Notes: generated by a model not told the origin, from the letters alone. A DNA stretch of 42,151 nucleotides from Mayamaea pseudoterrestris (GCA_027923505.1 BROI01000018.1:682001-724151); one strand, 5' to 3'. Positions 3,779 to 38,600 are shown, counted from the stretch's first letter. Made by a program: numbers and translations.

Positions 3779-4397
3779 CGCAAAAACCACGGGAAAGAAG
3801 CAAATGTTGTTGCACGGACATAGCATAATGACTGCTACTAACAATAGTAGCGATGTAGCGATCATAGTTTCGCGGAGCCGCGGCCAATGCCGATACTTTT
3901 TGTACCAAACATCACGTTTTCAGACGCAGTGACGCGACGCGACTCGTACTTCATGCCTCTTGATTATATACACCGGCAAAAGAATACTTCTCCTGCATAT
4001 GAGTTGCTTCTCATGGGCTTGGTATATACCTAGTACTCGCAGCTGCGATTATCATCAGCCAGCGATCAAGAACAGCGACAACATGTCCCTTCTACCGGTC
4101 ATAATACCTAAAACAATGTAATCTACAATGCGTTTTGCTCCTTTAGAATGGCCAAGACTCCCAACCGTCGCTTGTGCTGGTGGTTGCTGGCAAGCTACAG
4201 TAGTCGACGCAAGACGCAAGGAATTGATTGTGAGTCTTGCCGCGCAGTCGCGCCGTCCGCGCCCTTCCCCGTTAACCGTTAAAGATTGTGTTTTAAGTGC
4301 CGATTCGGCAAGGTTTCGTCCGTGGACAACCATGGATGAACCACTAAAATCACGCCGTCGTTTCTCTCGAATCTTGTCTCCACTCAACATACTTACC

Positions 4398-5972
4398 ATG
4401 ACAGCAACTACAGATCCAGTAGCAGCAGCAGTCGGGATTCCCATGGAGATTGAGAATCGCTACGCTGCCGCTGCGAGCAAGAAGGACACGGCAGCATCAG
4501 CAGCAGCAGCGAATAAAACCAACGCTTCCGTCTTGTATTCGCCGGAACTCCTTCAAGTCTACTACAGTCGTCTCTTTCCATTCGATCTTCTCCATACTTG
4601 GCTTTCGTACAATTCCAAAGATTTGTTCATGCGCCGCGAATTCAGCATGACGATTGAGCCCAAGGCTGGCGAGGAGGTTTACATGCGCTACCAATCCTTC
4701 TCAACTCAGGAAGCACTTGCCAACATGGTGTTACAGCGCCGTCCAACCAAGATGGATATCGGAGGTATTTACACGCATCCTCCAAAAGATAAGAATACTC
4801 TGCAAAAGTCTGTCTTTTTGCCAGTCCAGCGAGAACTGGTCTTTGACATTGACTTGACGGATTACGATGCCATTCGCAAGTGCGGTTGCACGGGCGCAAG
4901 CATTTGCAAGACTTGCTGGACCTTCATGAGCATGGCCGTCGAAGTATTGGATGCTTCATTAAAACAAGACTTTGCTTTTAAGCATGTTGCTTGGTTTTAC
5001 TCGGGTCGGCGTGGGGTTCATGCCTGGGTTTGCGACGAGACGGCAAGGGAACTGACGGATGACGGAAGGAGTGCAGTTGCTCACTATTTGCAGGTATGTT
5101 ATTCAGTGTCATGAGTATGTCATTGGAATGAGAGGTATCAGATATATATGTATTTATGATGGTCTACTCATTTTGTATGCATGCAACAGGTCGACTTGGC
5201 AACCGACAAGAACAAGGATGTGCACTTGCCGTCGCCGCTCCATCCCATGCTCACGAGAGCATTCAATATTCTCGAGCCCTACTTTATCAGCAATGTCATT
5301 CCAGCATCCGGGCATGGACTCTTGGCAACGCCGGACAACTGGAACTCCTTTTTGCAAACCTTGCCGGCAACGGCGAGTGAAGTACGCGAAAAATTAGAGG
5401 CGCGCTGGAACAAGTCCAAGGACACTTCCTCGCCCGACGAAAAGTGGATTGAACTCAAGACGCACCTACAATCCTTTTGCAAGGCGTCGGCCAAGGCTGG
5501 AGCAAACAAGTCCCAGAAAAGCATGACTAGTTTGGAACGAACTCGCCTCGAGAATTGGAAGTACGAAAGTGTGTTTCTCCATACCTATCCGCGACTCGAT
5601 ATTAATGTTTCGACGCATCGAAACCACTTGCTAAAGAGTCCGTTTTGCGTTCACCCCAAAACGGGTCGAGTCTGCGTTCCGTTCTCGGCGGAGCGAGTCA
5701 CCGACTTTGATCCCTTTGTAGTTCCAACGCTAGGTCAACTCATGGCGGAACTTGACGAGTCGTCGAGCAGCGACGACAAGATGGTGTCGAATGATAGCGA
5801 AAATTTTAGCAATAACAGCAGCAAGGCAGCGACCATGGATTGGCAAAAGACGAGCTTGAAAACATACTTTGAAAGATTTGAAAAAGAGTTTTTGAAGCCC
5901 TTGTGTAAGTCACTTCAAACTAAACGTCGCGATGAAGCGGAGCAAGTTGCGGCCATGACGGGAGACTTTTAA
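4398..5972 (+). CDS. PRI1: DNA primase small (catalytic) subunit, join(4398..5093,5190..5972), ~492 aa
   Basis: AEP motifs YYSRLFPF, RREFS, RELVFDIDLTDY, SGRRGVH, YPRLDINVS and HLLKSPFCVHPKTGRVCVP. A phase-0 intron 5094-5189 (GTATGT...CAACAG) joins ORFs 4128-5114 and 5181-5972 in frame. The start at ATG 4398 is a best guess. Confidence 0.95.
5094..5189 (+). other. Spliceosomal intron (96 bp) of the primase gene
   Basis: GT donor, CTACTCA branch-like motif and CAG acceptor; AT-rich with an in-frame stop; removal restores the primase frame. Confidence 0.9.
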
Positions 5973-6093: not shown

Positions 6094-7410
6094 TCACTTT
6101 CGCATCGTCTCATACGGCCGCTTGTAGTAGTAATCAAAGACGTCATCCGGGTGCCATCCTCGACAAGTATAACGCCAAACAATGAGTGCATTGGCAAAAG
6201 TCATGTAAATGGTTCCAACCCTTTGCCATCGTCGAATGGAAACTAGGCAGCTTCCGTCCAGCACAACCAGTTTTTCCGGCAAGCAGCGCGCACGTAGACG
6301 CAGATAATCCATAAGCTCATAGTCCTCCATGATGCACTGATTGGGAAATCCGCCAAGATATGTAAAATATACGGCCGGCATGGCAATACCTTGATCGCCG
6401 TATGGCAGTTTCAAAAACTTGGTTCGAAAATTCACCATCCACTTGACTGGCAGCAGCGCCCAGTATAGCGGAGAAGTTTGGATAGCTGCATCGTTGTTTT
6501 CGAAATATGCAGATGAAACGCAGGACTTGCTGTCGAATCCAAAGCGAAAGCATGTTGCATGAACCTTGTCGTGAGTGTCGTCACGCGATTCACGAAATTG
6601 CGCAAGTATTTGCTTGTCCCATGCGAATGGGGTCATTGTATCAGAGTGTAGAAAAAATAGCACTCTTCCTTGTGCATGCGACGCTCCATAGTTTAATGCT
6701 CGCCCTCGCCCCTGACTCCGGGAATCATTGGCAGCAGCGACGGCGACTACTACTTTCAGATTGCTCGCCGGCCAACCAGTGAAGTGTTCCAAGTACTCGG
6801 CCAAGTCGGTACTGCAGCCTCCAGCATTCACGACAACAACTTGAACATCAGTTTTCGCGTGTAAACTGCTCGTTTCGTACGCTCGCTGCAGTGTGGAAGC
6901 AATTCGTTGATTGGTTTCGCGAAACGCCGGAAGAATAATTGACATTTCAAACTGATACTCGCCGGCCGAAGGAATCATTGGCAGCTCCAAGAGCCTTGGC
7001 CATAGTCGATCCAGCATCTGATAAAGCGATGTTTTCGTCGTAGCAACTTTATCTCGATTGTAAGCTACGGTCGTCATGTACTGATTGATGAGCCGTCGAA
7101 GTGAATGCTCCGATCGGAGGCGACGAATGAGTTGCTCGTCGTCACAGTTTTGTTCCGGACGTTCCATCACCTGCACTTCTAGCTTCTCCAAGGAAAATTG
7201 CAGAGTCGTCAACCGATCTTGCGTCATGATTGGCATTCTATGACATTTGTTTGCTAACAATCGAAAGGCCTTCCAGTAGTAAAGGTAGGAGTACAAACAC
7301 CCGACAACACAGCAGGAAATCAGAGAAACTGGAACCTCCAAAATGACGGGAAGATGCGACTCTCGCAGCTTGTCAAGACAGTAGTCAATCCGCTCGTCTT
7401 TCGAAACCAT
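6094..7410 (-). CDS. Family 2 glycosyltransferase, TIGR04283-like, with N-terminal extension and probable TM segment
   Basis: Motifs SIILPAFRE, VVVVNAGG, GRGRALNYGASHAQGRVLFFLHSDT, LPYGDQGI, GGFPNQCIMEDYEL and SIRRWQRVG. The ORF is open to 7521; ATG 7410 is taken as the likely start. Confidence 0.85.
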   Translation of the reverse strand: MVSKDERIDYCLDKLRESHLPVILEVPVSLISCCVVGCLYSYLYYWKAFRLLANKCHRMPIMTQDRLTTLQFSLEKLEVQVMERPEQNCDDEQLIRRLRSEHSLRRLINQYMTTVAYNRDKVATTKTSLYQMLDRLWPRLLELPMIPSAGEYQFEMSIILPAFRETNQRIASTLQRAYETSSLHAKTDVQVVVVNAGGCSTDLAEYLEHFTGWPASNLKVVVAVAAANDSRSQGRGRALNYGASHAQGRVLFFLHSDTMTPFAWDKQILAQFRESRDDTHDKVHATCFRFGFDSKSCVSSAYFENNDAAIQTSPLYWALLPVKWMVNFRTKFLKLPYGDQGIAMPAVYFTYLGGFPNQCIMEDYELMDYLRLRARCLPEKLVVLDGSCLVSIRRWQRVGTIYMTFANALIVWRYTCRGWHPDDVFDYYYKRPYETMRK

Positions 7411-7725
7411 GACATACAGTTTGAGGTTCGTCACGAGCTGACAAGTGTAGCTATCGGCTATCGATAATGAATGATAAATGGACAAGGGAGGATGACACGT
7501 AAATTGTTGCTGTACCATCAATCAAAGTAATCGCAGCCAGCACGGTGCAGTTGCGGTTTCAATTAGAGCTTCGTTAATCATAACGGGTAATCGTCGTCAG
7601 GGCCACTGGTACATTGGCAGGACTTGCATGGGACGGTTTATCATACCTCCCACATGCACTGCCGCTCAATGGTGGAACGTTTGGTCGTGCATCAAGCGAT
7701 TTTTAAGAGGGGCACATATGCAAAT

Positions 7726-8083
7726 GACATAGTTTTCACTGGGACTCGTATCGTGTTATAGCATCGTGACGTAGTTTTCACTGGCACTCGTTTCATACTA
7801 TTGCCTAATGACGAAGTTCTCCCTGGCACTCGTTTCGTGCTATTGCCTGCTGACGCAGTTTTCACTGGCGCTCGTTTCGTGATATTGCCTGATGACGCAT
7901 TTTTCACTGGCACTCGTTTCACACTATTGCCCTATGGCGTAGTTTTCACTGGCACTCGTTTTGTGCTATAGCCTTTTGACTTAGTTTTCACTGGCACTCG
8001 TTTCGTGCTATTGCCTCATGACGCAGTTTTCACTGGCACTCGTTTCGTACTATAGCCTCGTGACGCAGTTTTCACTGGCACTC
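7726..8083. repeat. 42-bp minisatellite, ~8.5 copies (consensus AGTTTTCACTGGCACTCGTTTCGTGCTATTGCCTnnTGACGC)
   Basis: Unit starts at 7731, 7773, 7815, 7857, 7899, 7941, 7983, 8025 and 8067; exact 42-bp period with no indels. Confidence 0.95.
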
Positions 8084-8468
8084 TTTTTTTGGATGCAGAA
8101 CGACCATGGCAAGCGCAGCGCTCTCTTCTTTCACTTTTTGTCGCCTAAATTGACACCACATAATAGTCCTCCGGCCCATCACCATTAAGCTAGTAATGAA
8201 TTACATCAGCCGCCATTGACCAGCGAGCAGCCATAGAGTATTACGACTCGCTGCAATCATTCTGGTCTGCTAACTGCCAAGACGCCAAGACTTGTCTGCG
8301 TGTCGCATTACAGTGCGTCGTAATCGCTGCTTTCTACTAAAAGTCGGTAATATATGATGGAGAACTTCACATCCATCTCATCTACGTGGCATGATAACTA
8401 CGACTCATTCAAGGCTCGCTTCAAACAGAAGCGAGAAGCGATACACAGCAGTCCATTCACCCTCAACC

Positions 8469-8679
8469 TGTTGGATCTAGAATATATCTTGCGCGCCCTT
8501 GAAGCGACACTAATGATTAAGCAGAACAGAGTCAATAAAACCACTTTACTTATTTTCTCCAAGAAGTGATCGTCCTCGATCCACTCCTTCGGTTGCCGCT
8601 TACCGCGTTTACTTAAACGTGACCGTCTTCGTGACGTCACCGCTGTCTCTTCGGTTTGGGTTCTCATCCATGCTCAACA
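8469..8679 (-). repeat. 3' LTR (211 bp)
   Basis: TGTTGG...TCAACA termini; shares 18 bp at one end and 40 bp at the other exactly with 13473-13588. Confidence 0.93.
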
Positions 8680-10535
8680 CACTCCTTTGGTCCAAGTAGT
8701 ACTTACTGCTTGAGGCCAGATTCATAACCAGGTTGCGGAGCTTGCCAAACTGGGCTCCCTGCAATGGTTTCGTAAAGAAATCCGCGACCATGTCTCCGGT
8801 CGGACAATGCTCGATGTTGACCTCACCAGCTGCCACGCGATCCTTCACAAAGAAGTACCGAACATTCATGTGTCGCGTGCGCTTTGTACTTGAGCTTCTG
8901 CCATTCTTTTCCAACAACATTGAACTCATATTGTCTTGGTACAATTTCGTGTCCTTGACCCCGAAACCTTGTGCCTTCAGAAAATATCCTGTCCACAGCA
9001 ACTGCGGTAGCACATCGTGAACTCCCACGACTTCACTCTCCGTCGAGCTTCTTGTTACCAACTTCTGTTTAGCCGACGTACTGTACACTGACCCTTTTCC
9101 AAGTGTCATTGTTCCACCAGTGTGACCCTTCATGTCTGGGTGTACCGCGTACGATGCATCCACCCACCACTGGACTATCCCGGACTGGTCCGCCTTCAGC
9201 GTCAACACCATGTCCACGCTTCCGCGTAAATATTTAATCACTCTTGCAGCCTTCTTATAGTCGTCTTCGTCGGGCTGCTGCAGCCTCGTGCTCAAGAAAG
9301 AAATCGCTGTGCGAATATCCGGTCGCGCTCGCTGACTCAGATACAGACACTGCATCACAATCGTCACAAAAATCTGCTTCTTCGCTTCGCTCAGCATGAC
9401 AGGATTTTCCGAGATCTGAAACAAGTGACTGGCGGCCGGAGTAGCTGCCGTTCCATCCATGTCGCCCGGCGCATGATGAAGGATGTTCTTCACATAATCA
9501 ACCATGTTGATTGCTACTTCTCCAGGCTTAGTATAGTCCAATACCATGCCGAGGTAGTCGTGCACTTTTCCGCGTGACTTGTTCATTGGAGTCTCCTTGC
9601 CGAACTCCTCATCCATCTGCTCGATGAACGCATCCACTACGCTCACGTCGACGTGCGAAATCTTCAAATCGTCCACGTGCCATCCCACGGTGATTTGCTT
9701 TCCATTGACAATCTTGTTACACACACACGGATCGTACGGGTTCTTCTCGAAGCCCCACTCAAGCAATTTTGCAGACAACTTCTCCCAGAATAGTCGCGCT
9801 GCTCGAAGCGTACCATAAAGCGCCATGAGTAACTCAACGTACATGACTTTCTCGCCATTCTCCATTGTGACGCAAGGCTCGTACATCTCGCGATCAATTT
9901 CCAACAGTAGCTCCACCATCTTCCCAGTGAAACGAACGTGCACCAACTCGTCCATTTCCGCTTGCATAAAAGCGCCCGGTACATCAACCACAGCAACCTC
10001 GCGCCCTTCCATAGCGTCAATGATAGCTGTCAGAAAGATGGCCTCTGTCGCTATCGTTGGAGATGCTGCGTCTTCCTTTGCAGTGTATGCTCTTTGCTTG
10101 CGTCCATCCGCACATCCGCGTCCCTTCACAGTCCCGCATCGCTTGCGCTTGAGAAACATCAAATACGCCAGAGCGTCCTTGCGCTGCTGCGGAGTCAGAG
10201 TGCACTGGGGGACTGCCTTCATGACGTGCCTGTCGTGTAGCTGCTGCATTTCCTTGCGCACTGCCTCCACTCCAGCATCGCCAAAAGCCTTTAAACCTTG
10301 TCGCATGTTCATCTGTGCCGTGACGAGTGGCTCCGACACTTCCTCTGCAGCGTCGAGCGTGAACAAATGAGCGAACGATCGAGGTTTGCGTGCACGCAGG
10401 CCATACCGACCAGTGCGTGGGCCATAGCGCGCATCGAAATCCTCTTCGTCTGCAGCAGCTGGCACTCCTTCAATTTCGCCTTCATCGGGCACTCCTTCAA
10501 TTTCGCCATCATCCACGGCCGCGTCCAGGCCGGCG
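8609..10535 (-). CDS. Copia polyprotein part 3: reverse transcriptase and RNase H
   Basis: RT: KGRGCADG, VVDVPGAF, ALYGT, WHVDDL, YLGM. RNase H: WVDASY, SSTESEVV, YQDN, ADFFTKPLQG. The stop codon lies inside the 3' LTR. Confidence 0.95.
8680..8688 (-). other. Polypurine tract (AAAGGAGTG) abutting the 3' LTR
   Basis: Minus strand reads ...CCAAAGGAGTG|TGTTGAG..., the canonical PPT position. Confidence 0.8.
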
Positions 10536-11575
10536 CGTCATCATCCTCGTCGTCCGGCACTCCTTCGATTGCGCCGTCAGCACCATCGTCGTCGTCGCTG
10601 TCGTCGTCATCGGTCGCATTCACTCCTTCGCTTCCGCCGGCAGAGTCGTCCTCGCCGCGAGAAGCGTCGTCATCGTAATCAGAGTCATCATCATCCTCGT
10701 CGTCATCATCGTGCCACATGACCGGCTCAGCAGCTTCCGCAACACGGTGGCGGTCCATGAACACGATGCCCGGATTGGCCTTCTGTTGACGAGCGAGACG
10801 ATGCACGCGCTCAATGACATCATCAGGCATGGGCAAAGGCGTAGCGTGCCTACGATTCAGAATTTTCCCCGAAGACAAACTGAGGAAATAAAACCCGCCC
10901 TGCACATTACCAGTCGGGCGCAGAGCCAGCGCACCAATCGTGCGCGCCTGCATGTCATTACTGTGTGACTCATGCGTTTGCACATACTGACCAAATTCAT
11001 ACTTGCAATGCCGATTAAAGTCAACTGTCTGACCAGTCACAATGGTGCGTGGACTGAGATCCTTCGAAATGCCACGCTCGTTCGGAAACGCATTCAACCA
11101 AAACACGGCAGACTTCGTCATCTCGATAACCAATCGTGCCGGCACGTGCTTAAACGGCAACGTGTTGTATGTCGCGCGCACCCGTTCCTTCACGACACGG
11201 ATAAAACGTTCGATTTCGCCAACGTGCTCATCCTCAGACGTCGCATTGAGCGCCACTCCGAGATCAGCCAACGCGCCAAGCATTGGAGCGAACTCCCCAT
11301 CCATCAGAGCCGCGACGACACGGAACCCACCGCGTGCGTAAATCTTCAACACAGACTCAATTGCCTTCAACATAACCGGAAGCGTACGGTTTTGAATCAC
11401 CTCGACCGTAGCAAAACGAATGCTGCGGGAGAACGTCACCAACATGGGGACCTTGTTGATATACATGATGTCAGCACAAAGAGTAACGTCTCGATAACGA
11501 CTCATGATAGCCGGTGGAAGTTGCTCAACAATCGCAGGCTTCACCAGATGCGACGCGCGACGCGTCGTCGTTCCT
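10535..11575 (-). CDS. Copia polyprotein part 2: integrase core and acidic linker (limits set by frameshifts)
   Basis: DDE motifs CADIMYIN, MDGEF and EHVGEIERFIRVVKER; also WLNAFP and FGQYVQ. Confidence 0.9.
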
Positions 11576-13445
11576 TTAACGAGCCAACATCTGGTCCAAA
11601 GATGTGCTCAGCAGCCAGGATGTCGGCCTTCGTCACAGGACAGTTCGGCAACTGATTGCTAGTAACGATGCGCAGGTAATCCTTGAGGCTTGGCCGTCCA
11701 ATTTTGATTTGCAGTTCCCTAGCTCTAACAGCGCGTAAATAGTCATCATTGGTGTAGTTAGTACGGTTATCGTCTACCGTAGTCAACATCGCCACTCCAT
11801 CCTTGACATCGCCGCGCTTGCCCTTTGAAAAGCTCTCGCAAACATACAGCCCAGAGTCCGTCTCGACAAACTCTCGCTGCTTACCGTCCGGCTTCTCCAC
11901 GACGAACATTGGACGCTCCACGCCATGCATGAGATACTCCACGGTAAACTTCTTTCGGACTTGCGCCAAACTCAAAATGTTCGCCAGCCCCTGCGGATAC
12001 CACCACACCGGACCATAGCCCTCCAGGTCGCCCATCATGTTCGTCCTTACTGTACCAGCGTTGCACTTGATCACCATCCACGTTGGCACCGGGCGAATGT
12101 TCGTCAGCATCTTGGCGTTACAGAACAGATCCACTGTCGACTGATTGTCCAAGAGCACAGCCTTCTTTGAGATGTTCACCTTCGGCGGCTGCGCGAACAT
12201 GTATCCGACCTCGTCGTCGTCGTCGCTATCTTCCTCGCTACCCAGCGTGAAGTGCTGCGCCCCACTAGCCTCTGCAGCCGGCGCACTCTCCGTAGACTCC
12301 GCTCTCGTGGGACAGTCTCGCTGCACATGACCAACCTGTTGGCAGATCCAGCATCTGGGAGGGTCACGCGCTGTACCAGTCGTGTGAAACGCCACGCCCT
12401 CGTTCGTTGGCAACGTGGCTTCTCCATCCGCATGCTCACGACGCTGCATGATGTTGTATGCATCGTGGATCGTCAACGGGAAGTTGTCGTGCCCGTCGAG
12501 GTAGCAGTTGCGCAAGTGCTTGCAATACCCAGCGTATTCGCCCGTTGCGCCACGCACGAAAAGCATCGCAAGCTCGAGCTCTTCGGCGGCCTTGATATCA
12601 TCCTTGTTCGCCTTGTTACGATTGTCATCCTTGGCAATGTTCAGCGCCACAATCTCGTTGTGCATCGTGACGCCAACCGCCTTCGCCACGTCTGCCAGCG
12701 TGACCATGCTTTCGTAATATTTCTGCAGGCTTTCGCGCGCTCCTTGAGTACGTCCGAACAACTCAGCTTGAATGTCCACGACTTGATCCACAAGTTTGCA
12801 GCGCCCTTCGTACGTGTGCGAGATCTCCTTGATAATCGCCAGCAACTTAATTCCGTCCGTGTCCTCCTCGGCGTCTCGGAACTTGGCGTGCGACTTGACA
12901 CGATCCTTCATACGCTCCGTGCATTGCCCATACAACACGGCGTAGAGACCAGCGAGGAAGTCGGAGTATACACGCACGCGCTCGACATGCTCTTTCTTGT
13001 CGGCCTTGTATTCCTCGAGCATTATGGACCAGTCCGAGTCCGTCGTGTCGGCATCCTTCGTTGGACGCGCAGGCTCGTCAGGAATCTCCAGTTCCACGTT
13101 GCGCATGCCCTTGAGCAGCTCCTTGGTATATTTCTTGTAGGAGCGCCCGACGAAAGTGATGATCTCGTTCGTCGTACGGATGAATCCATCGGGATCGCGC
13201 GAACCGTTGTAGTCGTAGATGAAGCCAGCGAGCGTCGGCTCGCTTCCTTGGAAATTTCCACTCGGCGCACGACTCGGTCCGTTGAGTCTGTTACCATTGC
13301 CTTGGTTCCCGGAACGATTCCCAGCACGATTCCCACGACGATAATGACGGTTACGTCGGTTTCCTTCGCTTGCTGGCGGAGCGGGAGGTGCACCTCCACC
13401 GCTCGACGCCGTTCCTGTCGTCGGAGTATTGCTCGTCGAAGACAT
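11541..13445 (-). CDS. Copia polyprotein part 1: Gag, zinc knuckle, aspartic protease, pre-integrase region
   Basis: CWICQQVGHVQRDC (CX2CX4HX4C); protease-like VLLDNQSTVDLF and ANILSL; ends in a frameshift near 11575. Confidence 0.9.
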   Translation of the reverse strand: MSSTSNTPTTGTASSGGGAPPAPPASEGNRRNRHYRRGNRAGNRSGNQGNGNRLNGPSRAPSGNFQGSEPTLAGFIYDYNGSRDPDGFIRTTNEIITFVGRSYKKYTKELLKGMRNVELEIPDEPARPTKDADTTDSDWSIMLEEYKADKKEHVERVRVYSDFLAGLYAVLYGQCTERMKDRVKSHAKFRDAEEDTDGIKLLAIIKEISHTYEGRCKLVDQVVDIQAELFGRTQGARESLQKYYESMVTLADVAKAVGVTMHNEIVALNIAKDDNRNKANKDDIKAAEELELAMLFVRGATGEYAGYCKHLRNCYLDGHDNFPLTIHDAYNIMQRREHADGEATLPTNEGVAFHTTGTARDPPRCWICQQVGHVQRDCPTRAESTESAPAAEASGAQHFTLGSEEDSDDDDEVGYMFAQPPKVNISKKAVLLDNQSTVDLFCNAKMLTNIRPVPTWMVIKCNAGTVRTNMMGDLEGYGPVWWYPQGLANILSLAQVRKKFTVEYLMHGVERPMFVVEKPDGKQREFVETDSGLYVCESFSKGKRGDVKDGVAMLTTVDDNRTNYTNDDYLRAVRARELQIKIGRPSLKDYLRIVTSNQLPNCPVTKADILAAEHIFGPDVGSLKERRRVARRIW

Positions 13446-13458
13446 GTCTTTTCACTCC

Positions 13459-13473
13459 CTTCTTGGAGAAAAT
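13459..13473 (-). other. Primer-binding-site position, non-tRNA type, complementary to LTR 8552-8566
   Basis: Minus strand reads ...CAACA|TTTTCTCCAAGAAG with no TGG, and is an exact inverted match to an LTR segment. Confidence 0.7.
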
Positions 13474-13588
13474 GTTGGATCTAGAATATAGTGGCAATTG
13501 GATCTTCTCGCTAGCCCACCGCGTTTACATCGCACCGTCCGTCACGTCCCGCTGTCTCTTCGGTTTGGGTTCTCATCCATGCTCAACA
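13473..13588 (-). repeat. 5' LTR (116 bp as assembled; internally deleted or garbled)
   Basis: Same termini as the 3' LTR and followed by the TSD; the middle is a shortened, diverged version that retains ACCGCGTTTAC. Confidence 0.85.
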
Positions 13589-14497
13589 CAACCCTCAATT
13601 CCTTGCCAGTCGCCGCAAATCGACATGCCATTCGTAACATCATGGCCGAGCTACGGAAGTGCGAAAGTCTCGAATTTATTGTCTCTTCTACGTAAATTGT
13701 GGCTGCGACGTTATGCTCGCTTTTGCCGAGACCTTGCATCGACTTCCATTCACAAGGCCAGTGTTTATTTGGGAAATTGACGTTTTGTTTGATGACTCTT
13801 CGCAATTTGCCTCGATTGACGCATCTCAAAATCAAGAGTGAATGGTGATTGTATCATAATGGCGATGGTATATGCGAAGAGCTGGCTTTGTTCCTCGACG
13901 GCGGCCAGTTCCATGCGAGTCGACGTTTGCTCCCTTCTCGCCCCCACGACACTATTCTCCCTGCGTTACACGCCATTCCAAGTTTGAAATCTTCGCACAT
14001 TTCATACCAGGACGAGATGAAGCATTGGGTGATTCCCGACTTGACACCGCGTCCATCTCAGGCGATTTGCCCGCGTCTTGCTTTCGAAACTTTTGTCAAG
14101 CGCTCGCCGGAGCAAGAGTAAAATGTGTCACGTGCGCTGCAAGCAGTCCCAAACACCGCTTTTCCTGCAGAACCAAACATTACCATCTGGCGGTTGCCGC
14201 TGCGTTGCAGTCGCGCATGGAGAGCTTCTCTCTGCCGTACATGCCTTGTTGAACGTTACCTACTGTACTGAGCATCTAGGACGATTTAATACGGCCAAGG
14301 AACCAGCAGAGGTTTGCCGGCTAACGATTTAAAGAGTAGGTACCGGCAGTGCAGTAATTTTGATGTTAAATAATTTATTAGTGTATTGACGTACCACTTT
14401 TACCCAGCACAAGCATGTTATTAAGAGAAGTCGCCCAGTGCACATCTTGTGCAAGATTCATGTTTCAAAGGCCCCTCAATTCTTTTTTTTCTAGCAT

Positions 14498-26689: not shown

Positions 26690-29600
26690 GGCCACCCAAA
26701 TCCAATGAGTCGGGCCAAACATGTCCAGGGTATGCCATTGACAGGTGCATAGTCTCAAATGGTGCCAAAAGGACTGCCTGGAGGCTGACACCATGGGTAC
26801 GGCCTCCACGGTGGGTATGGCCAACACCACAAGTTTGACCTGTCAAACCTGCCCCATGCCATGGCCACCCAAATACCCAATGAGTCAGGCCAAACATGTC
26901 CAGGGTATGCCATTGACAGGTGCAGAGTCTCAAATGGTGCAAAAGGACTGCCTGGAGGCTGACACCATGGGTACGGCCTCCACGGTGGGTATGGCCAACA
27001 CCACAAGTTGTCGATTCTGACCTGTCAAACGCCCCATGCCCTGGCCACCCAAATACCCAATGAGTCAGGCCAAACATGTCCAGGGTATGCCATTGACAGG
27101 TGCATAGTCTCAAATGGTGCAAAAAGGACTGCCTGGAGGCTGACACCATGGGTACGGCCTCCACGGTGGGTATGGCCAACACCACAAGTTGTCGATTCTG
27201 ACCTGTCAAACGCCCCATGCCCTGGCCACCCAAATACCCAATGAGTCAGGCAAAACATGTCCAGGGTATGCCATTGACAGGTGCAGAGTCTCAAATGGTG
27301 CAAAAGGACTGCCTGGAGGCTGACACCATGGGTACGGCCTCCACGGTGGGTATGGCCAACACCACAAGTTGTCGATTCTGCCCTGTCAAACGCCCCATGC
27401 CCTGGCCACCCAAATACCCAATGAGTCAGGCAAACATGTCCAGGGTATGCCATTGACAGGTGCAGAGTCTCAAATGGTGCAAAAAGGACTGCCTGGAGGC
27501 TGACACCATGGGTACGGCCTCCACGGTGGGTATGGCCAACACCACAAGTTGTCAATTCTGACCTGTCAAACGCCCCATGCCCTGGCCACCCAAATACCCA
27601 ATGAGTCAGGCAAAACATGTCCAGGGTATGCCATTGACAGGTGCAGAGTCTCAAATGGTGCAAAAAGGACTGCCTGGAGGCTGACACCATGGGTACGGCC
27701 TCCACGGTGGGTATGGCCAACACCACAAGTTGTCGATTCTGACCTGTCAAACGCCCCATGCCCTGGCCACCCAAATACCCAATGAGTCAGGCCAAACATG
27801 TCCAGGGTATGCCATTGACAGGTGCAGAGTCTCAAATGGTGCAAAAAGGACTGCCTGGAGGCTGACACCATGGGTACGGCCTCCACGGTGGGTATGGCCA
27901 ACACCACAAGTTGTCGATTCTGACCTGTCAAACGCCCCATGCCCTGGCCACCCAAATACCCAATGAGTCAGGCAAAACATGTCCAGGGTATGCCATTGAC
28001 AGGTGCAGAGTCTCAAATGGTGCAAAAAGGACTGCCTGGAGGCTGACACCATGGGTACGGCCTCCACGGTGGGTATGGCCAACACCACAAGTTGCAGATT
28101 CTGACCTGTCAAACGCCCCATGCCCTGGCCACCCAAATACCCAATGAGTCAGGCAAAACATGTCCAGGGTATGCCATTGACAGGTGCAGAGTCTCAAATG
28201 GTGCAAAAAGGACTGCCTGGAGGCTGACACCATGGGTACGGCCTCCACGGTGGGTATGGCCAACACCACAAGTTGCAGATTCTGACCTGTCAAACGCCCC
28301 ATGCCCTGGCCACCCAAATACCCAATGAGTCAGGCAAAACATGTCCAGGGTATGCCATTGACAGGTGCAGAGTCTCAAATGGTGCAAAAGGACTGCCTGG
28401 AGGCTGACACCATGGGTACGGCCTCCACGGTGGGTATGGCCAACACCACAAGTTGTAGATTCTTCCCTGTCAAACGCCCCATGCCCTGGCCACCCAAATA
28501 CCCAATGAGTCAGGCAAAACATGTCCAGGGTATGCCATTGACAGGTGCAGAGTCTCAAATGGTGCAAAAAGGACTGCCTGGAGGCTGACACCATGGGTAC
28601 GGCCTCCACTGTGGGTATGGCCAACACCACAAGTTGCAGATTCTTCCCTGTCAAACGCCCCATGCCCTGGCCACCCAAATACCCAATGAGTCAGGCAAAA
28701 CATGTCCAGGGTATGCCATTGACAGGTGCAGAGTCTCAAATGGTGCAAAAAGGACTGCCTGGAGGCTGACACCATGGGTACGGCCTCCACGGTGGGTATG
28801 GCCAACACCACAAGTTGTCGATTCTGACCTGTCAAACGCCCCATGCCCTGGCCACCCAAATACCCAATGAGTCAGGCAAAACATGTCCAGGGTATGCCAT
28901 TGACAGGTGCAGAGTCTCAAATGGTGCAAAAAGGACTGCCTGGAGGCTGACACCATGGGTACGGCCTCCACGGTGGGTATGGCCAACACCACAAGTTGCA
29001 GATTCTGACCTGTCAAACGCCCCATGCCCTGGCCACCCAAATACCCAATGAGTCAGGCAAAACATGTCCAGGGTATGCCATTGACAGGTGCAGAGTCTCA
29101 AATGGTGCAAAAAGGACTGCCTGGAGGCTGACACCATGGGTACGGCCTCCACTGTGGGTATGGCCAACACCACAAGTTGCAGATTCTTCCCTGTCAAACG
29201 CCCCATGCCCTGGCCACCCAAATACCCAATGAGTCAGGCAAAACATGTCCAGGGTATGCCATTGACAGGTGCAGAGTCTCAAATGGTGCAAAAAGGACTG
29301 CCTGGAGGCTGACACCATGGGTACGGCCTCCACTGTGGGTATGGCCAACACCACAAGTTGCAGATTCTTCCCTGTCAAACGCCCCATGCCCTGGCCACCC
29401 AAATACCCAATGAGTCAGGCAAAACATGTCCAGGGTATGCCATTGACAGGTGCAGAGTCTCAAATGGTGCAAAAAGGACTGCCTGGAGGCTGACACCATG
29501 GGTACGGCCTCCACTGTGGGTATGGCCAACACCACAAGTTGCCGATTCTTACCTGTCAAACGCCCCATGCCCTGGCCACCCAAATACCCAATGAGTCAGG

Positions 29601-32600
29601 CAAAACATGTCCAGGGTATGCCATTGACAGGTGCAGAGTCTCAAATGGTGCAAAAAGGACTGCCTGGAGGCTGACACCATGGGTACGGCGGCCACCCAAA
29701 TACCCAATGAGTCAGGCAAAACATGTCCAGGGTATGCCATTGACAGGTGCAGAGTCTCAAATGGTGCAAAAAGGACTGCCTGGAGGCTGACACCATGGGT
29801 ACGGCCTCCACTGTGGGTATGGCCAACACCACAAGTTGCCGATTCTTCCCTGTCAAACGCCCCATGCCCTGGCCACCCAAATACCCAATGAGTCAGGCAA
29901 AACATGTCCAGGGTATGCCATTGACAGGTGCAGAGTCTCAAATGGTGCAAAAGGACTGCCTGGAGGCTGACACCATGGGTACGGCCTCCACGGTGGGTAT
30001 GGCCAACACCACAAGTTGCAGATTCTTCCCTGTCAAACGCCCCATGCCCTGGCCACCCAAATACCCAATGAGTCAGGCAAAACATGTCCAGGGTATGCCA
30101 TTGACAGGTGCAGAGTCTCAAATGGTGCAAAAAGGACTGCCTGGAGGCTGACACCATGGGTACGGCCTCCACTGTGGGTATGGCCAACACCACAAGTTGC
30201 AGATTCTTCCCTGTCAAACGCCCCATGCCCTGGCCACCCAAATACCCAATGAGTCAGGCAAAACATGTCCAGGGTATGCCATTGACAGGTGCAGAGTCTC
30301 AAATGGTGCAAAAAGGACTGCCTGGAGGCTGACACCATGGGTACGGCCTCCACTGTGGGTATGGCCAACACCACAAGTTGCAGATTCTTCCCTGTCAAAC
30401 GCCCCATGCCCTGGCCACCCAAATACCCAATGAGTCAGGCAAAACATGTCCAGGGTATGCCATTGACAGGTGCAGAGTCTCAAATGGTGCAAAAAGGACT
30501 GCCTGGAGGCTGACAACATGGGTACGGCCTCCACTGTGGGTATGGCCAACACCACAAGTTGCAGATTCTTCCCTGTCAAACGCCCCATGCCCTGGCCACC
30601 CAAATACCCAATGAGTCAGGCAAAACATGTCCAGGGTATGCCATTGACAGGTGCAGAGTCTCAAATGGTGCAAAAAGGACTGCCTGGAGGCTGACACCAT
30701 GGGTACGGCTGCCACTGTGGGTATGGCCAACACCACAAGTTGCAGATTCTTCCCTGTCAAACGCCCCATGCCCTGGCCACCCAAATACCCAATGAGTCAG
30801 GCAAAACATGTCCAGGGTATGCCATTGACAGGTGCAGAGTCTCAAATGGTGCAAAAAGGACTGCCTGGAGGCTGACACCATGGGTACGGCCTCCACTGTG
30901 GGTATGGCCAACACCACAAGTTGCAGATTCTTCCCTGTCAAACGCCCCATGCCCTGGCCACCCAAATACCCAATGAGTCAGGCAAAACATGTCCAGGGTA
31001 TGCCATTGACAGGTGCAGAGTCTCAAATGGTGCAAAAAGGACTGCCTGGAGGCTGACAACATGGGTACGGCCTCCACTGTGGGTATGGCCAACACCACAA
31101 GTTGCAGATTCTTCCCTGTCAAACGCCCCATGCCCTGGCCACCCAAATACCCAATGAGTCAGGCAAAACATGTCCAGGGTATGCCATTGACAGGTGCAGA
31201 GTCTCAAATGGTGCAAAAAGGACTGCCTGGAGGCTGACACCATGGGTACGGCCTCCACTGTGGGTATGGCCAACACCACAAGTTGCAGATTCTTCCCTGT
31301 CAAACGCCCCATGCCCTGGCCACCCAAATACCCAATGAGTCAGGCAAAACATGTCCAGGGTATGCCATTGACAGGTGCAGAGTCTCAAATGGTGCAAAAA
31401 GGACTGCCTGGAGGCTGACACCATGGGTACGGCCTCCACTGTGGGTATGGCCAACACCACAAGTTGCAGATTCTTCCTGTCAAACGCCCCATGCCCTGGC
31501 CACCCAAATACCCAATGAGTCAGGCAAAACATGTCCAGGGTATGCCATTGACAGGTGCATAGTCTCAAATGGTGCAAAAAGGACTGCCTGGAGGCTGACA
31601 CCATGGGTACGGCCTCCACTGTGGGTATGGCCAACACCACAAGTTGCAGATTCTTCCCTGTCAAACGCCCCATGCCCTGGCCACCCAAATACCCAATGAG
31701 TCAGGCAAAACATGTCCAGGGTATGCCATTGACAGGTGCAGAGTCTCAAATGGTGCAAAAAGGACTGCCTGGAGGCTGACAACATGGGTACGGCCTCCAC
31801 TGTGGGTATGGCCAACACCACAAGTTGCAGATTCTTCCCTGTCAAACGCCCCATGCCCTGGCCACCCAAATACCCAATGAGTCAGGCAAAACATGTCCAG
31901 GGTATGCCATTGACAGGTGCAGAGTCTCAAATGGTGCAAAAAGGACTGCCTGGAGGCTGACACCATGGGTACGGCCTCCACTGTGGGTATGGCCAACACC
32001 ACAAGTTGCAGATTCTTCCCTGTCAAACGCCCCATGCCCTGGCCACCCAAATACCCAATGAGTCAGGCAAAACATGTCCAGGGTATGCCATTGACAGGTG
32101 CATAGTCTCAAATGGTGCAAAAAGGACTGCCTGGAGGCTGACACCATGGGTACGGCCTCCACTGTGGGTATGGCCAACACCACAAGTTGCAGATTCTTGC
32201 CTGTCAAACGCCCCATGCCCTGGCCACCCAAATACCCAATGAGTCAGGCAAAACATGTCCAGGGTATGCCATTGACAGGTGCAGAGTCTCAAATGGTGCA
32301 AAAAGGACTGCCTGGAGGCTGACAACATGGGTACCGCCTCCACTGTGGGTATGGCCAACACCACAAGTTGCGTCAAACGCCCCATGCCCTGGCCACCCAA
32401 ATACCCAATGAGTCAGGCAAAACATGTCCAGGGTATGCCATTGACAGGTGCAGAGTCTCAAATGGTGCAAAAAGGACTGCCTGGAGGCTGACAACATGGG
32501 TACGGCCTCCACTGTGGGTATGGCCAACACCACAAGTTGCAGATTCTTCCCTGTCAAACGCCCCATGCCCTGGCCACCCAAATACCCAATGAGTCAGGCA

Positions 32601-35600
32601 AAACATGTCCATGGTATGCCATTGACAGGTGCAGAGTCTCAAATGGTGCAACAAGGACTGCCCGGAGGCTGACACCATGGGTACGGCCTCCACTGTGGGT
32701 ATGGCCAACACCACAAGTTGCAGATTCTTCCCTGTCAAACGCCCCATGCCCTGGCCACCCAAATACCCAATGAGTCAGGCAAAACATGTCCAGGGTATGC
32801 CATTGACAGGTGCATAGTCTCAAATGGTGCAAAAAGGACTGCCTGGAGGCTGACACCATGGGTACGGCCTCCACTGTGGGTATGGCCAACACCACAAGTT
32901 GCAGATTCTTCCCTGTCAAACGCCCCATGCCCTGGCCACCCAAATACCCAATGAGTCAGGCAAAACATGTCCAGGGGATGCCATTGACAGGTGCAGAGTC
33001 TCAAATGGTGCAAAAAGGACTGCCTGGAGGCTGACAACATGGGTACGGCCTCCACTGTGGGTATGGCCAACACCACAAGTTGCAGATTCTTCCCTGTCAA
33101 ACGCCCCATGCCCTGGCCACCCAAATACCCAATGAGTCAGGCAAAACATGTCCAGGGTATGCCATTGACAGGTGCAGAGTCTCAAATTGTGCAAAAAGGA
33201 CTGCCTGGATGGCCTCCACTGTGGGTATGGCCAACACCACAAGTTGCAGATTCTTCCCTGTCAAACGCCCCATGCCCTGGCCACCCAAATACCCAATGAG
33301 TCAGGCAAAACATGTCCAGGGTATGCCATTGACAGGTGCAGAGTCTCAAATGGTGCAAAAAGGACTGCCTGGAGGCTGACACCATGGGTACGGCCTCCGC
33401 TGTGGGTATGGCCAACACCACAAGTTGCAGATTCTTCCCGTCAAACGCCCCATGCCCTGGCCACCCAAATACCCAATGAGTCAGGCAAAACATGTCCAGG
33501 GTATGCCATTGACAGGTGCATAGTCTCAAATGGTGCAAAAAGGACTGCCTGGAGGCTGACAACATGGGTACGGCCTCCACTGTGGGTATGGCCAACACCA
33601 CAAGTTGCAGATTCTTCCCTGTCAAACGCCCCATGCCCTGGCCACCCAAATACCCAATGAGTCAGGCAAAACATGTCCAGGGTATGCCATTGACAGGTGC
33701 AGAGTCTCAAATGGTGCAAAAAGGACTGCCTGGATGGGTACGGCCTCCACTGTGGGTATGGCCAACACCACAAGTTGCAGATTCTTCCCTGTCAAACGCC
33801 CCATGCCCTGGCCACCCAAATACCCAATGAGTCAGGCAAAACATGTCCAGGGTATGCCATTGACAGGTGCATAGTCTCAAATGGTGCAAAAAGGACTGCC
33901 TGGAGGCTGACACCATGGGTACGGCCTCCACTGTGGGTATGGCCAACACCACAAGTTGCAGATTCTTCCCTGTCAAACGCCCCATGCCCTGGCCACCCAA
34001 ATACCCAATGAGTCAGGCAAAACATGTCCAGGGTATGCCATTGACAGGTGCAGAGTCTCAAATGGTGCAAAAAGGACTGCCTGGAGGCTGACAACCATGG
34101 GTACGGCCTCCACTGTGGGTATGGCCAACACCACAAGTTGCAGATTCTTCCTGTCAAACGCCCCATGCCCTGGCCACCCAAATACCCAATGAGTCAGGCA
34201 AAACATGTCCAGGGTATGCCATTGACAGGTGCATAGTCTCAAATGGTGCAAAAAGGACTGCCTGGAGGCTGACAACCATGGGTACGGCCTCCACTGTGGG
34301 TATGGCCAACACCACAAGTTGCAGATTCTTCCCTGTCAAACGCCCCATGCCCTGGCCACCCAAATACCCAATGAGTCAGGCAAAACATGTCCAGGGTATG
34401 CCATTGACAGGTGCAGAGTCTCAAATGGTGCAAAAGGACTGCCTGGAGGCTGAAAACATGGGTACGGCCTCCACTGTGGGTATGGCCAACACCACAAGTT
34501 GCAGATTCTTCCCTGTCAAACGCCCCATGCCCTGGCCACCCAAATACCCAATGAGTCAGGCAAAACATGTCCAGGGTATGCCATTGACAGGTGCATAGTC
34601 TCAAATGGTGCAAAAAGGACTGCCTGGAGGCTGACACCATGGGTACGGCCTCCACTGTGGGTATGGCCAACACCACAAGTTGCAGATTCTTCCCTGTCAA
34701 ACGCCCCATGCCCTGGCCACCCAAATACCCAATGAGTCAGGCAAAACATGTCCAGGGTATGCCATTGACAGGTGCATAGTCTCAAATGGTGCAAAAAGGA
34801 CTGCCTGGAGGCTGACAACATGGGTACGGCCTCCACTGTGGGTATGGCCAACACCACAAGTTGCAGATTCTTCCTGTCAAACGCCCCATGCCCTGGCCAC
34901 CCAAATACCCAATGAGTCAGGCAAAACATGTCCAGGGTATGCCATTGACAGGTGCATAGTCTCAAATGGTGCAAAAAGGACTGCCTGGAGGCTGACACCA
35001 TGGGTACGGCCTCCACTGTGGGTATGGCCAACACCACAAGTTGCAGATTCTTCCCTGTCAAACGCCCCATGCCCTGGCCACCCAAATACCCAATGAGTCA
35101 GGCAAAACATGTCCAGGGTATGCCATTGACAGGTGCAGAGTCTCAAATGGTGCAAAAAAGAACTGCCTGGAGGCTGACACCATGGGTACGGCCTCCACTG
35201 TGGGTATGGCCAACACCACAAGTTGCAGATTCTTCCCTGACAAACGCCCCATGCCCTGGCCACCCAAATACCCAATGAGTCAGGCAAAACATGTCCAGGG
35301 TATGCCATTGACAGGTGCATAGTCTCAAATGGTGCAAAAAGGACTGCCTGGAGGCTGACAACATGGGTACGGCCTCCACTGTGGGTATGGCCAACACCAC
35401 AAGTTGCAGATTCTTCCCTGTCAAACGCCCCATGCCCTGGCCACCCAAATACCCAATGAGTCAGGCAAAACATGTCCAGGGTATGCCATTGACAGGTGCA
35501 TAGTCTCAAATGGTGCAAAAAGGACTGCCTGGAGGCTGACACCACATGGGTACGGCCTCCACTGTGGGTTTGGGCCAACACCACAAGTTGCAGATTCTTC

Positions 35601-38600
35601 CCTGTCAAACGCCCCATGCCCTGGCCACCCAAATACCCAATGAGTCAGGCAAAACATGTCCAGGGTATGCCATTGACAGGTGCATAGTCTCAAATGGTGC
35701 CAAAAGGACTGCCTGGAGGCTGACACCATGGGTACGGCCTCCACTGTGGGTATGGCCAACACCACAAGTTGCAGATTCTTCCCTGTCAAACGCCCCATGC
35801 CCTGGCCACCCAAATACCCAATGAGTCAGGCAAAACATGTCCAGGGTATGCCATTGACAGGTGCATAGTCTCAAATGGTGCAAAAAGGACTGCCTGGAGG
35901 CTGACACCATGGGTACGGCCTCCACTGTGGGTATGGCCAACACCACAAGTTGCAGATTCTTCCCTGTCAAACGCCCCATGCCCTGGCCACCCAAATACCC
36001 AATGAGTCAGGCAAAACATGTCCAGGGTATGCCATTGACAGGTGCATAGTCTCAAATGGTGCAAAAAGGACTGCCTGGAGGCTGACAACAACATGGGTAC
36101 GGCCTCCACTGTGGGTATGGCCAACACCACAAGTTGCAGATTCTTCCCTGTCAAACGCCCCATGCCCTGGCCACCCAAATACCCAATGAGTCAGGCAAAA
36201 CATGTCCAGGGTATGCCATTGACAGGTGCATAGTCTCAAATGGTGCAAAAAGGACTGCCTGGAGGCTGACACCATGGGTACGGCCTCCACTGTGGGTATG
36301 GCCAACACCACAAGTTGCAGATTCTTCCCTGTCAAACGCCCCATGCCCTGGCCACCCAAATACCCAATGAGTCAGGCAAAACATGTCCAGGGTATGCCAT
36401 TGACAGGTGCATAGTCTCAAATGGTGCAAAAAGGACTGCCTGGAGGCTGACAACATGGGTACGGCCTCCACTGTGGGTATGGCCAACACCACAAGTTGCA
36501 GATTCTTCCCTGTCAAACGCCCCATGCCCTGGCCACCCAAATACCCAATGAGTCAGGCAAAACATGTCCAGGGTATGCCATTGACAGGTGCATAGTCTCA
36601 AATGGTGCAAAAAGGACTGCCTGGAGGCTGACACCATGGGTACGGCCTCCACTGTGGGTATGGCCAACACCACAAGTTGCAGATTCTTCCCTGTCAAACG
36701 CCCCATGCCCTGGCCACCCAAATACCCAATGAGTCAGGCAAAACATGTCCAGGGTATGCCATTGACAGGTGCATAGTCTCAAATGGTGCAAAAAGGACTG
36801 CCTGGAGGCTGACACCATGGGTACGGCCTCCACTGTGGGTATGGCCAACACCACAAGTTGCAGATTCTTCCCTGTCAAACGCCCCATGCCCTGGCCACCC
36901 AAATACCCAATGAGTCAGGCAAAACATGTCCAGGGTATGCCATTGACAGGTGCAGAGTCTCAAATGGTGCAAAAAGGACTGCCTGGAGGCTGAAAACCAT
37001 GGGTACGGCCTCCACTGTGGGTATGGCCAACACCACAAGTTGCAGATTCTTCCCTGTCAAACGCCCCATGCCCTGGCCACCCAAATACCCAATGAGTCAG
37101 GCAAAACATGTCCAGGGTATGCCATTGACAGGTGCATAGTCTCAAATGGTGCAAAAAGGACTGCCTGGAGGCTGACACCATGGGTACGGCCTCCACTGTG
37201 GGTATGGCCAACACCACAAGTTGCAGATTCTTCCCTGTCAAACGCCCCATGCCCCGGCCACCCAAATACCCAATGAGTCAGGCAAAACATGTCCAGGGTA
37301 TGCCATTGACAGGTGCATAGTCTCAAATGGTGCAAAAAGGACTGCCTGGAGGCTGACAACATGGGTACGGCCTCCACTGTGGGTATGGCCAACACCACAA
37401 GTTGCAGATTCTTCCCTGTCAAACGCCCCATGCCCTGGCCACCCAAATACCCAATGAGTCAGGCAAAACATGTCCAGGGTATGCCATTGACAGGTGCAGA
37501 GTCTCAAATGGTGCAAAAAGGACTGCCTGGAGGCTGAAAACATGGGTACGGCCTCCACTGTGGGTATGGCCAACACCACAAGTTGCAGATTCTTCCCTGT
37601 CAAACGCCCCATGCCCTGGCCACCCAAATACCCAATGAGTCAGGCAAAACATGTCCAGGGTATGCCATTGACAGGTGCATAGTCTCAAATGGTGCAAAAA
37701 GGACTGCCGGAGGCTGACACCATGGGTACGGCCTCCACTGTGGGTATGGCCAACACCACAAGTTGCAGATTCTTCCCTGTCAAACGCCCCATGCCCTGGC
37801 CACCCAAATACCCAATGAGTCAGGCAAAACATGTCCAGGGTATGCCATTGACAGGTGCATAGTCTCAAATGGTGCCAAAAGGACTGCCTGGAGGCTGAAA
37901 ACATGGGTACGGCCTCCACTGTGGGTATGGCCAACACCACAAGTTGCAGATTCTTCCCTGTCAAACGCCCCATGCCCTGGCCACCCAAATACCCAATGAG
38001 TCAGGCAAAACATGTCCAGGGTATGCCATTGACAGGTGCATAGTCTCAAATGGTGCAAAAAGGACTGCCTGGAGGCTGACAACATGGGTACGGCCTCCAC
38101 TGTGGGTATGGCCAACACCACAAGTTGCAGATTCTTCCCTGTCAAACGCCCCATGCCCTGGCCACCCAAATACCCAATGAGTCAGGCAAAACATGTCCAG
38201 GGTATGCCATTGACAGGTGCATAGTCTCAAATGGTGCAAAAAGGACTGCCTGGAGGCTGACAACATGGGTACGGCCTCCACTGTGGGTATGGCCAACACC
38301 ACAAGTTGCAGATTCTTCCCTGTCAAACGCCCCATGCCCTGGCCACCCAAATACCCAATGAGTCAGGCAAAACATGTCCAGGGTATGCCATTGACAGGTG
38401 CATAGTCTCAAATGGTGCAAAAAGGACTGCCTGGAGGCTGACACCATGGGTACGGCCTCCACTGTGGGTATGGCCAACACCACAAGTTGCAGATTCTTCC
38501 CTGTCAAACGCCCCATGCCCTGGCCACCCAAATACCCAATGAGTCAGGCAAAACATGTCCAGGGTATGCCATTGACAGGTGCATAGTCTCAAATGGTGCA

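Follow-up and report, generated by a model that had tools for sequence, protein, structure and literature searches.

The window considered here, a stretch of 42,151 nucleotides (nt) of Mayamaea pseudoterrestris DNA (GCA_027923505.1 BROI01000018.1:682001-724151) with positions counted from its first letter, carries on its minus strand a whole, defective copy of a Copia-type long terminal repeat (LTR) retrotransposon (Table 1). Among the hallmarks of Ty1/copia (Pseudoviridae) elements, it has LTRs of the form TGTTG...CAACA, a 5-base-pair (bp) duplication of the target site (GGTTG), and a Gag zinc knuckle (PF00098). The third piece of its open reading frame (ORF) matches the Copia-type reverse transcriptase (RT) family PF07727 (RVT_2) at 63.3 bits, with the Pfam cut-off at 31.6. 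Based on the anatomy of the element, the covariation among its relatives, and the analogy with the Schizosaccharomyces pombe element Tf1, we propose that this family primes reverse transcription with the element's own RNA instead of a host tRNA, a reading to which we assign a probability of about 0.8.

A primer-binding site complementary to the element's own LTR

Immediately after the terminal A of the 5' LTR (13473), the minus strand reads TTTTCTCCAAGAAG (13472-13459), while the 3' LTR holds TCA (8569-8567) followed by CTTCTTGGAGAAAAT (8566-8552). The two segments are exact complements over 14 nt, or over 15 nt when the LTR-terminal A is counted (13473-13459 with 8566-8552). This direct reading of the minus strand bears out the preliminary description of the DNA, which had claimed that the primer-binding site (PBS) is complementary to the LTR of the same element, that a TCA directly precedes the LTR segment, and that the sequence directly after the 5' LTR has no TGG to receive the CCA end of a tRNA. 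When up to two mismatches were allowed, the PBS 14-mer had these two sites alone in the 42-kilobase (kb) window. Dinucleotide shuffles of the window gave a mean of 0.23 matches to the 14-mer at the same threshold, with 3 of 100 shuffles reaching two. By arithmetic, an exact 14-mer complement is expected by chance within a 211-nt LTR at about 1e-6.

Other copies of the family were sought in public sequencing runs, nine of which contain 42-52% of the sampled words of the element; none of them is recorded as RNA. Logan contigs from four of these, X1, X2, X3, and X8, were mapped on 8380-13700; by their nature, such contigs cannot show RNA starts. In X2 and X8, a contig leads out of the internal region, crosses the PBS as far as 13472, and enters sequence of the 3'-LTR type at 8469, with 18 letters common at the joint, and in X2 a contig spans the whole LTR into pol. 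Contigs of X1 and X3 depart from the window sequence at 13490 and continue with 3'-LTR-type letters. The family at large thus has a full-length LTR with the primer segment directly before the PBS. The preliminary description had cautioned that the assembled 5' LTR lacks the complementary segment; that is correct for the window copy, where the 14-mer has no match in this LTR at up to two mismatches, and the contigs of other copies, with a full LTR adjoining the PBS, resolve the caveat.

Table 1. Features of the Copia-type element, in window coordinates
Feature	Position	Strand	Basis
Copia-type LTR retrotransposon, whole copy, defective (5120 nt)	8469..13588	minus	LTR pair, ORFs, contig joints
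Target-site duplication GGTTG, upstream copy	13589..13593	minus	read directly; 5 letters common at empty-site joint (X1, X3)
5' LTR, 116 nt, aberrant	13473..13588	minus	alignments; ends ...CCAACA at 13473
PBS, 14 nt, directly after LTR-terminal A (13473)	13459..13472	minus	position same in 56/57 readable relatives
ORF piece 1: Gag with CCHC zinc knuckle, probably protease	11541..13445	minus	PF00098 match
ORF piece 2: presumed integrase region, different frame	10309..11544	minus	ORF reading; no Pfam match
ORF piece 3: Copia-type RT (RVT_2) and RNase H region	8609..10516	minus	PF07727
Candidate polypurine tract AAAGGAGTG, directly before 3' LTR	8680..8688	minus	function inferred
3' LTR, 211 nt, TGTTG...CAACA, full-length form of the family	8469..8679	minus	alignment; contigs in X2, X8
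TCA of initiator-like motif (TCA/C(+1)T); predicted transcription start 8566	8567..8569	minus	consensus TCAH(+1)W
Self-primer segment: predicted first 14-15 nt of transcript	8552..8566	minus	exact complement of PBS and LTR-terminal A
Target-site duplication GGTTG, downstream copy	8464..8468	minus	read directly and contigs

Comparative evidence from related loci

The ORF for RT and RNase H (RT-RH) was aligned with 31 homologues, and the alignment was used to fetch 79 loci from metagenome contigs, picked by RT-RH protein homology alone at 48-69% amino-acid identity. The only named close RT homologue comes from the diatom Nitzschia, and the family is apparently diatom-type. Entire loci were then scanned, blind to position, for perfect inverted repeats spaced 30-400 nt apart. 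One repeat pair was the top or near-top match in most loci, with its first arm right after a (G)CTCA motif inside the LTR and its second right after the ...CAACA end of the LTR. The 377,741 nt scanned hold 59 perfect inverted repeats of at least 14 nt, 50 of them at the LTR end and PBS and 9 elsewhere in 3 loci; block shuffles of the loci yielded 0-2 seeds per replicate.

Both the LTR and the LTR/PBS junction were readable in 57 of the 79 loci. The other 22 lie on non-circular contigs with the RT match less than 2 kb from the contig start or, in the case of L068, on a contig that starts 6 nt before the LTR end and has no other LTR sequence. The scan itself gave a perfect complement of 12-21 nt in 50 loci, comparison of the PBS with the 3' LTR gave it in 3 (L045, L052, and L063), and reading across the junction of a circular contig gave it in 1 (L056). 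A perfect complement of this length (mode 15) is therefore present in the same two places in 54 of the 57 readable loci, across a loop of 52-151 nt. With L067 and L073, copies of the same old element in which 12 of 14 positions match and both mismatches are compatible with G-U pairing, the same architecture is found in 56 of 57 readable relatives; in the last, L074, the LTR end is not recognisable. Among the 50 scan loci, the arms measure 12 (1 locus), 14 (15), 15 (29), 16 (3), 17 (1), or 21 nt (1), and the median loop is 101 nt. Further repeats were seen at two of the loci. About 1 kb downstream of its LTR/PBS pair, L031 has a second 15-nt perfect inverted repeat (L031:3593-3770), after TTCA and TCAAGA, possibly the relic of a further element of this type, and L043 has a cluster of 22-nt and 15-nt perfect inverted repeats (L043:180-505) unrelated to the LTR/PBS pair.

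Covariation of PBS and LTR segment in sister elements, which the preliminary description had put forward as a check of its claim, is strongly positive across these Copia loci. The 50 scan elements have 34 distinct 14-nt PBS sequences, none beginning with TGG. Compared with the LTR of its own element, the PBS matches at 14/14 in 31 cases and at 13/14 in the remaining 3; compared with the LTRs of the other 33, none of 1122 pairs reaches 14/14, 7 reach 13, and the mode is 9. Each PBS variant matches the LTR of its own element and no other, so that PBS and LTR segment covary. This alignment-free comparison across elements is the cleaner test, since the aligned set used below was preselected for the repeat.

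For the aligned set, 47 distinct segments were aligned with MAFFT, and a 15-pair helix was scored against 500 shuffles. Cells were paired in 90.7% (60.9 ± 1.4% in the shuffles), 192 cells were changed on both sides (58 ± 6.5), and the covariation score was 0.657 (0.176), values that none of the 500 shuffles reached; slid registers left 38-50% of cells paired. About a quarter of the sequences were misaligned by MAFFT, which also divided the 5' arm; the alignment was kept unchanged, which makes the helix scores conservative.

Given 20 sequences, RNAalifold predicted the long-range helix (14 pairs) unaided, together with a 4-bp helix (GGTT/AACC) just after the primer, formed by the conserved CTGGTTTAC, and an 8-bp U5 hairpin with a bulged U inside the primer/PBS loop. 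Compensatory changes occur in 24 of the 26 predicted pairs. The leader modelled from the contig junction likewise has a minimum-energy fold, at -32.7 kcal/mol, that includes the 15-bp helix. Examples of the U5 hairpin can be inspected at L004:2084-2222, L006:3111-3248, and L035:2896-3033, and one subgroup of relatives, with the primer CTCTTTTTACGAAAT, has a different U5. The hairpin may resemble the U5-IR loop of Tf1, a likeness taken from the title of a paper that PMC7175516 cites.

Predicted transcription start and priming mechanism

For promoters of Phaeodactylum (P. tricornutum), an initiator-like consensus has been proposed, TCAH(+1)W, with TCA immediately followed by the +1 base (according to passages of PMC4686930). 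Across 46 distinct contexts, the +1 given by this motif lies no more than 3 nt from the first paired base in 39 and exactly on that base in 32, with pairing extending one base upstream in 4 more; CA/Y stands at this position in 45. The window copy reads TCA/CT, with +1 at 8566. The start proposed in the preliminary description, next to the A of the TCA, is compatible with the consensus, which would put +1 on the first paired base. No TCAHW-type motif was found at the 3' end of the complementary segment. This indirect evidence suggests that the complementary segment forms the first 14-15 nt of the transcript, the trait by which Tf1-type self-priming is defined.

In the mechanism that we predict from the anatomy and the covariation, the base that follows the TCA of the LTR's initiator-like motif would be the first one transcribed. 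The leading 14-15 nt of the RNA would fold back over an R/U5 loop of about 100 nt, containing the conserved bulged hairpin, and pair with the PBS abutting the LTR end, whether in a single molecule or across two that are packaged together. If the analogy with Tf1 holds, the RNase H of the element would then cut where the duplex ends, roughly after nt 14, and the freed 3'-OH would be extended through U5. A primer of 14 nt would place the first synthesised base opposite the LTR-terminal A, defining the end of the complementary DNA (cDNA). In Tf1, the primer is reportedly copied into the plus strand. If the same applied here, the PBS of each new copy would be rewritten from the primer, and such rewriting in every cycle would explain both the perfect matches and their rapid diversification. 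A broader proposal is that an abundant diatom-type Copia lineage replicates without host tRNA, its primer and PBS evolving in concert as a rapidly changing private 'barcode' against cross-priming of co-resident subfamilies. Taken with the plant TAR lineage and the Tf1/sushi group, this would mean that self-priming was either repeatedly invented or is ancestral in LTR retrotransposons. We offer this proposal tentatively and consider it possible at best.

Several observations weigh against self-priming with the element's own RNA. The window copy's own 5' LTR is without the primer segment. Within the aligned set, the number of pairs with changes on both sides (13) was reached by 90 of 500 shuffles and the number of further pair types (33) by 132 of 500, so neither is above the shuffles; the 47 segments all come from loci where the repeat had already been found, and the slid-register control is favoured by construction. 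The modelled leader has a modest z of -2.0 relative to 200 shuffles. No tRNA genes were detected in the window or, with aragorn, in the window and 79 loci together. The start site, the cleavage, and the primer itself are predictions. Finally, the contigs of two different elements, L045 and L052, begin at nt 15, the base after the 14-nt segment (L045:5353-5367 and L052:5339-5353 show the primer segment for comparison). These starts could reflect RNase H-cleaved RNA, another physical end, or transcription starting at nt 15.

If transcription did start just downstream of the segment, the segment would form the end of U3, the RNA would carry it only close to the 3' terminus, and the primer or circularising contact would come from the 3' copy or from a second RNA. 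The two contig starts are what speaks for this arrangement. However, both contigs continue beyond the 3' LTR, by 348 and 687 nt, which makes them look unlike simple transcripts. There is also neither an initiator-like TCA nor CA/Y where the segment ends, whereas TCAHW stands at its beginning in most contexts, as counted above, and cutting the 3' copy at the U3/R border would presumably detach R from the template that is required once the first strand transfer has taken place. We regard a downstream start as quite improbable. Slightly easier to entertain, but still unlikely, is that the duplex exists and is under selection for a different step, such as RNA packaging, dimerisation, translation control, or strand transfer, with the minus strand primed otherwise. 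Structure and covariation do not identify which 3'-OH is extended, and fungal GalEa Copia elements have a conserved hairpin at the PBS position with a role described as unknown (in passages of PMC5445492). Such a role would nonetheless have to accommodate a 3' arm that always lies within one base of the LTR-terminal A, where a primer must sit to define the cDNA end, a 5' arm that starts at the predicted +1, and a layout that matches the Tf1 arrangement. No alternative PBS is visible either: TGG begins none of the 34 variants, and conservation does not extend downstream of the arm.

Conventional priming by a host tRNA or an internal tRNA fragment, which would make the LTR complement incidental, has the precedent of most Copia elements, which use a tRNA or half-tRNA (according to passages of PMC6317226). 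Conserved tRNAs, however, cannot track the diversity of the PBS, because its 34 variants in 50 elements each match their own LTR only. Judged from the PBS and LTR sequences, the missing TGG and the hypervariable PBS would place the family outside the tRNA-primed class, and we consider this explanation very unlikely. As for a chance match or an assembly artefact, such a suspicion could arise from the abnormal 5' LTR and from the 4.9 kb that separate the arms in the assembly. It is refuted by the comparative data, since nearly all readable relatives repeat the architecture and contigs of four runs confirm the junction, and it can hardly be credited.

Self-priming as we propose it most closely resembles that of Tf1 and Tf2 from S. 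pombe, members of the Tf1/sushi group of Ty3/gypsy elements, in which self-priming has been shown experimentally and not, as here, predicted. The PBS of Tf1 is complementary to the start of the transcript and pairs with its first 11 bases, RNase H cleaves the RNA between bases 11 and 12, the duplex closes an R/U5 loop that contains a stem-loop, and a tRNA is not needed (according to passages of PMC7175516). The present family is predicted to share this layout, and differs in having a Copia-type RT (RVT_2) in place of one of Ty3/gypsy type, a duplex of 14-15 bp (range 12-21) in place of 11 bp, a hypervariable primer and PBS with 34 variants, and a start site and RNase H cleavage that are predicted. 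By descent, its RVT_2 RT sets it apart from the Tf1/sushi clade; the element would, judging from its sequence, work like Tf1 outside that clade.

Within the Copia superfamily, self-priming has been predicted from sequence for the plant Ty1/copia TAR lineage, and it had been proposed earlier for Houba and Osr-1 of that lineage (passages of PMC6317226). The suggestion in the preliminary description of tRNA-independent priming in a Copia lineage gains support from the covariation, with the mechanism itself still predicted, but not as something unprecedented, since the TAR prediction came before it. In contrast to TAR, which has plant hosts, the present case adds a covariation test and the coincidence with the initiator; the two are likened by description. 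The fungal GalEa Copia elements also have no tRNA-type PBS and a conserved structure at the PBS position, but there it is a local palindrome or hairpin for which the authors report no complementary LTR sequence, whereas the partner seen in the present family is about 100 nt upstream, within the LTR (PMC5445492). Copia elements primed by a tRNA or half-tRNA (most plant lineages; Osser, Bryco, and Bianca) belong to the same superfamily and have their PBS in the same position next to the 5' LTR, but theirs is conserved and matches tRNA-Met, half tRNA-Met, or half tRNA-Ile (passages of PMC6317226), unlike the variable PBS found here, which matches only the LTR of its own element.

The CoDi groups of diatom Copia elements (Phaeodactylum and Thalassiosira) probably share the host group and the superfamily. 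A term search of the main text of the CoDi paper (PMC2806351) returned neither 'tRNA' nor 'priming', and its sole 'PBS' is the buffer. Full-text searches of open-access papers gave no description of self-priming in diatom Copia or stramenopile retrotransposons, and the start of reverse transcription in diatom Copia is not discussed in the open-access papers searched. We regard the family as a new Copia lineage with a predicted mechanism that is itself already known, mainly from Tf1.

Copia-type elements are reported to be major repeats of diatom genomes (abstract of PMC2806351). If this lineage self-primes, annotation pipelines that seek a tRNA-type PBS would miss or misjudge such elements, the primer/PBS pair would provide a simple marker for subfamilies and for competent versus dead copies, and host defences that aim tRNA fragments at the PBS would not apply. 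Self-priming here would also be relevant to the idea, raised in PMC3601003, that hairpin priming is older than tRNA priming.

The window copy and its surroundings

The Logan contigs refine the borders of the element to 13588..8469, through an empty-site joint from 8463 to 13589 and the LTR/PBS joint from 13472 to 8469. The former is made by a separate contig in X1 and X3 that skips 5125 nt with 5 letters shared, an empty site with one GGTTG, and because this contig exists, the insertion must be polymorphic or heterozygous. All four runs have contigs with an extra T behind 11574 and contigs with +13/-3 nt (net +10) around 10519-10597, which are the two sites where the frames of the window break. 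The coding capacity of the window copy is divided among three overlapping frames; L045, L052, and L063 have single ORFs of 1620-1741 amino acids. Contigs of other copies are without the two frame breaks and the shortening of the 5' LTR, which are therefore defects peculiar to the window copy. The summed contig depth on the element runs to thousands in X1 and X3, which fits a high-copy family, with the proviso that depth is not copy number. What the window holds is a broken member of a Copia-type family that has a high copy number and was recently mobile.

The aberrant 5' LTR has its first 40 nt and last 18 nt in common with the 3' LTR. Between these ends, alignment to the 3' LTR shows that the second half of U3 has diverged, with indels, and that about 95 nt of R/U5 are absent, the gap starting exactly at the first base of the complementary segment, which is the predicted +1. 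When the actual 5' LTR and leader of the window copy were folded, the 15-bp primer/PBS helix could not form. With a 5' LTR that lacks the predicted start site and primer, and with its coding region in three frames, this copy is unable to self-prime. Exchange between elements at different sites is an unlikely origin of the short LTR because the 5-bp duplication flanks the entire copy. An error in plus-strand strong-stop synthesis and instability of the primer/PBS inverted repeat (hairpin) were each considered as the cause of the deletion and set aside, as both leave the diverged second half of U3 unaccounted for. Conversion and an assembly problem are candidate explanations; no contig was placed beyond 13490 in X2 and X8, and the X1 and X3 rows listed do not settle the matter.

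No integrase family was matched in Pfam by ORF piece 2 of the window (10309-11544) or by the intact relatives L045 and L052, and the expected integrase region of L045 (L045:1618-3417) had no match among Protein Data Bank (PDB) sequences. The integrase of this lineage is presumed, from its sequence, to be very divergent. Because the expected region matches no Pfam or PDB entry, assignment to Copia rests on the RT family and on domain spacing. PF07727 is also matched in L045 and L052, and in L045 the zinc knuckle and the RT are separated by about 780 amino acids, with only about 370 following the RT, a spacing compatible with an integrase upstream of the RT. A search of 8000-14000 against Rfam matched no family at E <= 1. 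Towards the 3' end of the element, the pol frame extends about 70 nt into the 3' LTR (8609-8693 in the window, and in relatives). The junction AGGAGTG/TGTTG, which joins the candidate polypurine tract to the LTR start, is kept in 21 relatives listed and also codes for R-S-V-L; because it is both conserved and coding, the LTR start is under coding as well as cis-acting constraint.

Host genes adjoin the insertion (4128-5972 and 6094-7521). The first encodes a DNA primase small subunit in two ORFs (4128-5114 and 5181-5972), probably split by an intron, and the second, on the minus strand, a family-2 glycosyltransferase. Just downstream of the 3' end of the element lies a tandem array of 42-bp units (7682-8143), and a satellite array of 181-bp units occupies 26940-42151, to the end of the window, with at least 84 copies that are mostly 97-100% alike.

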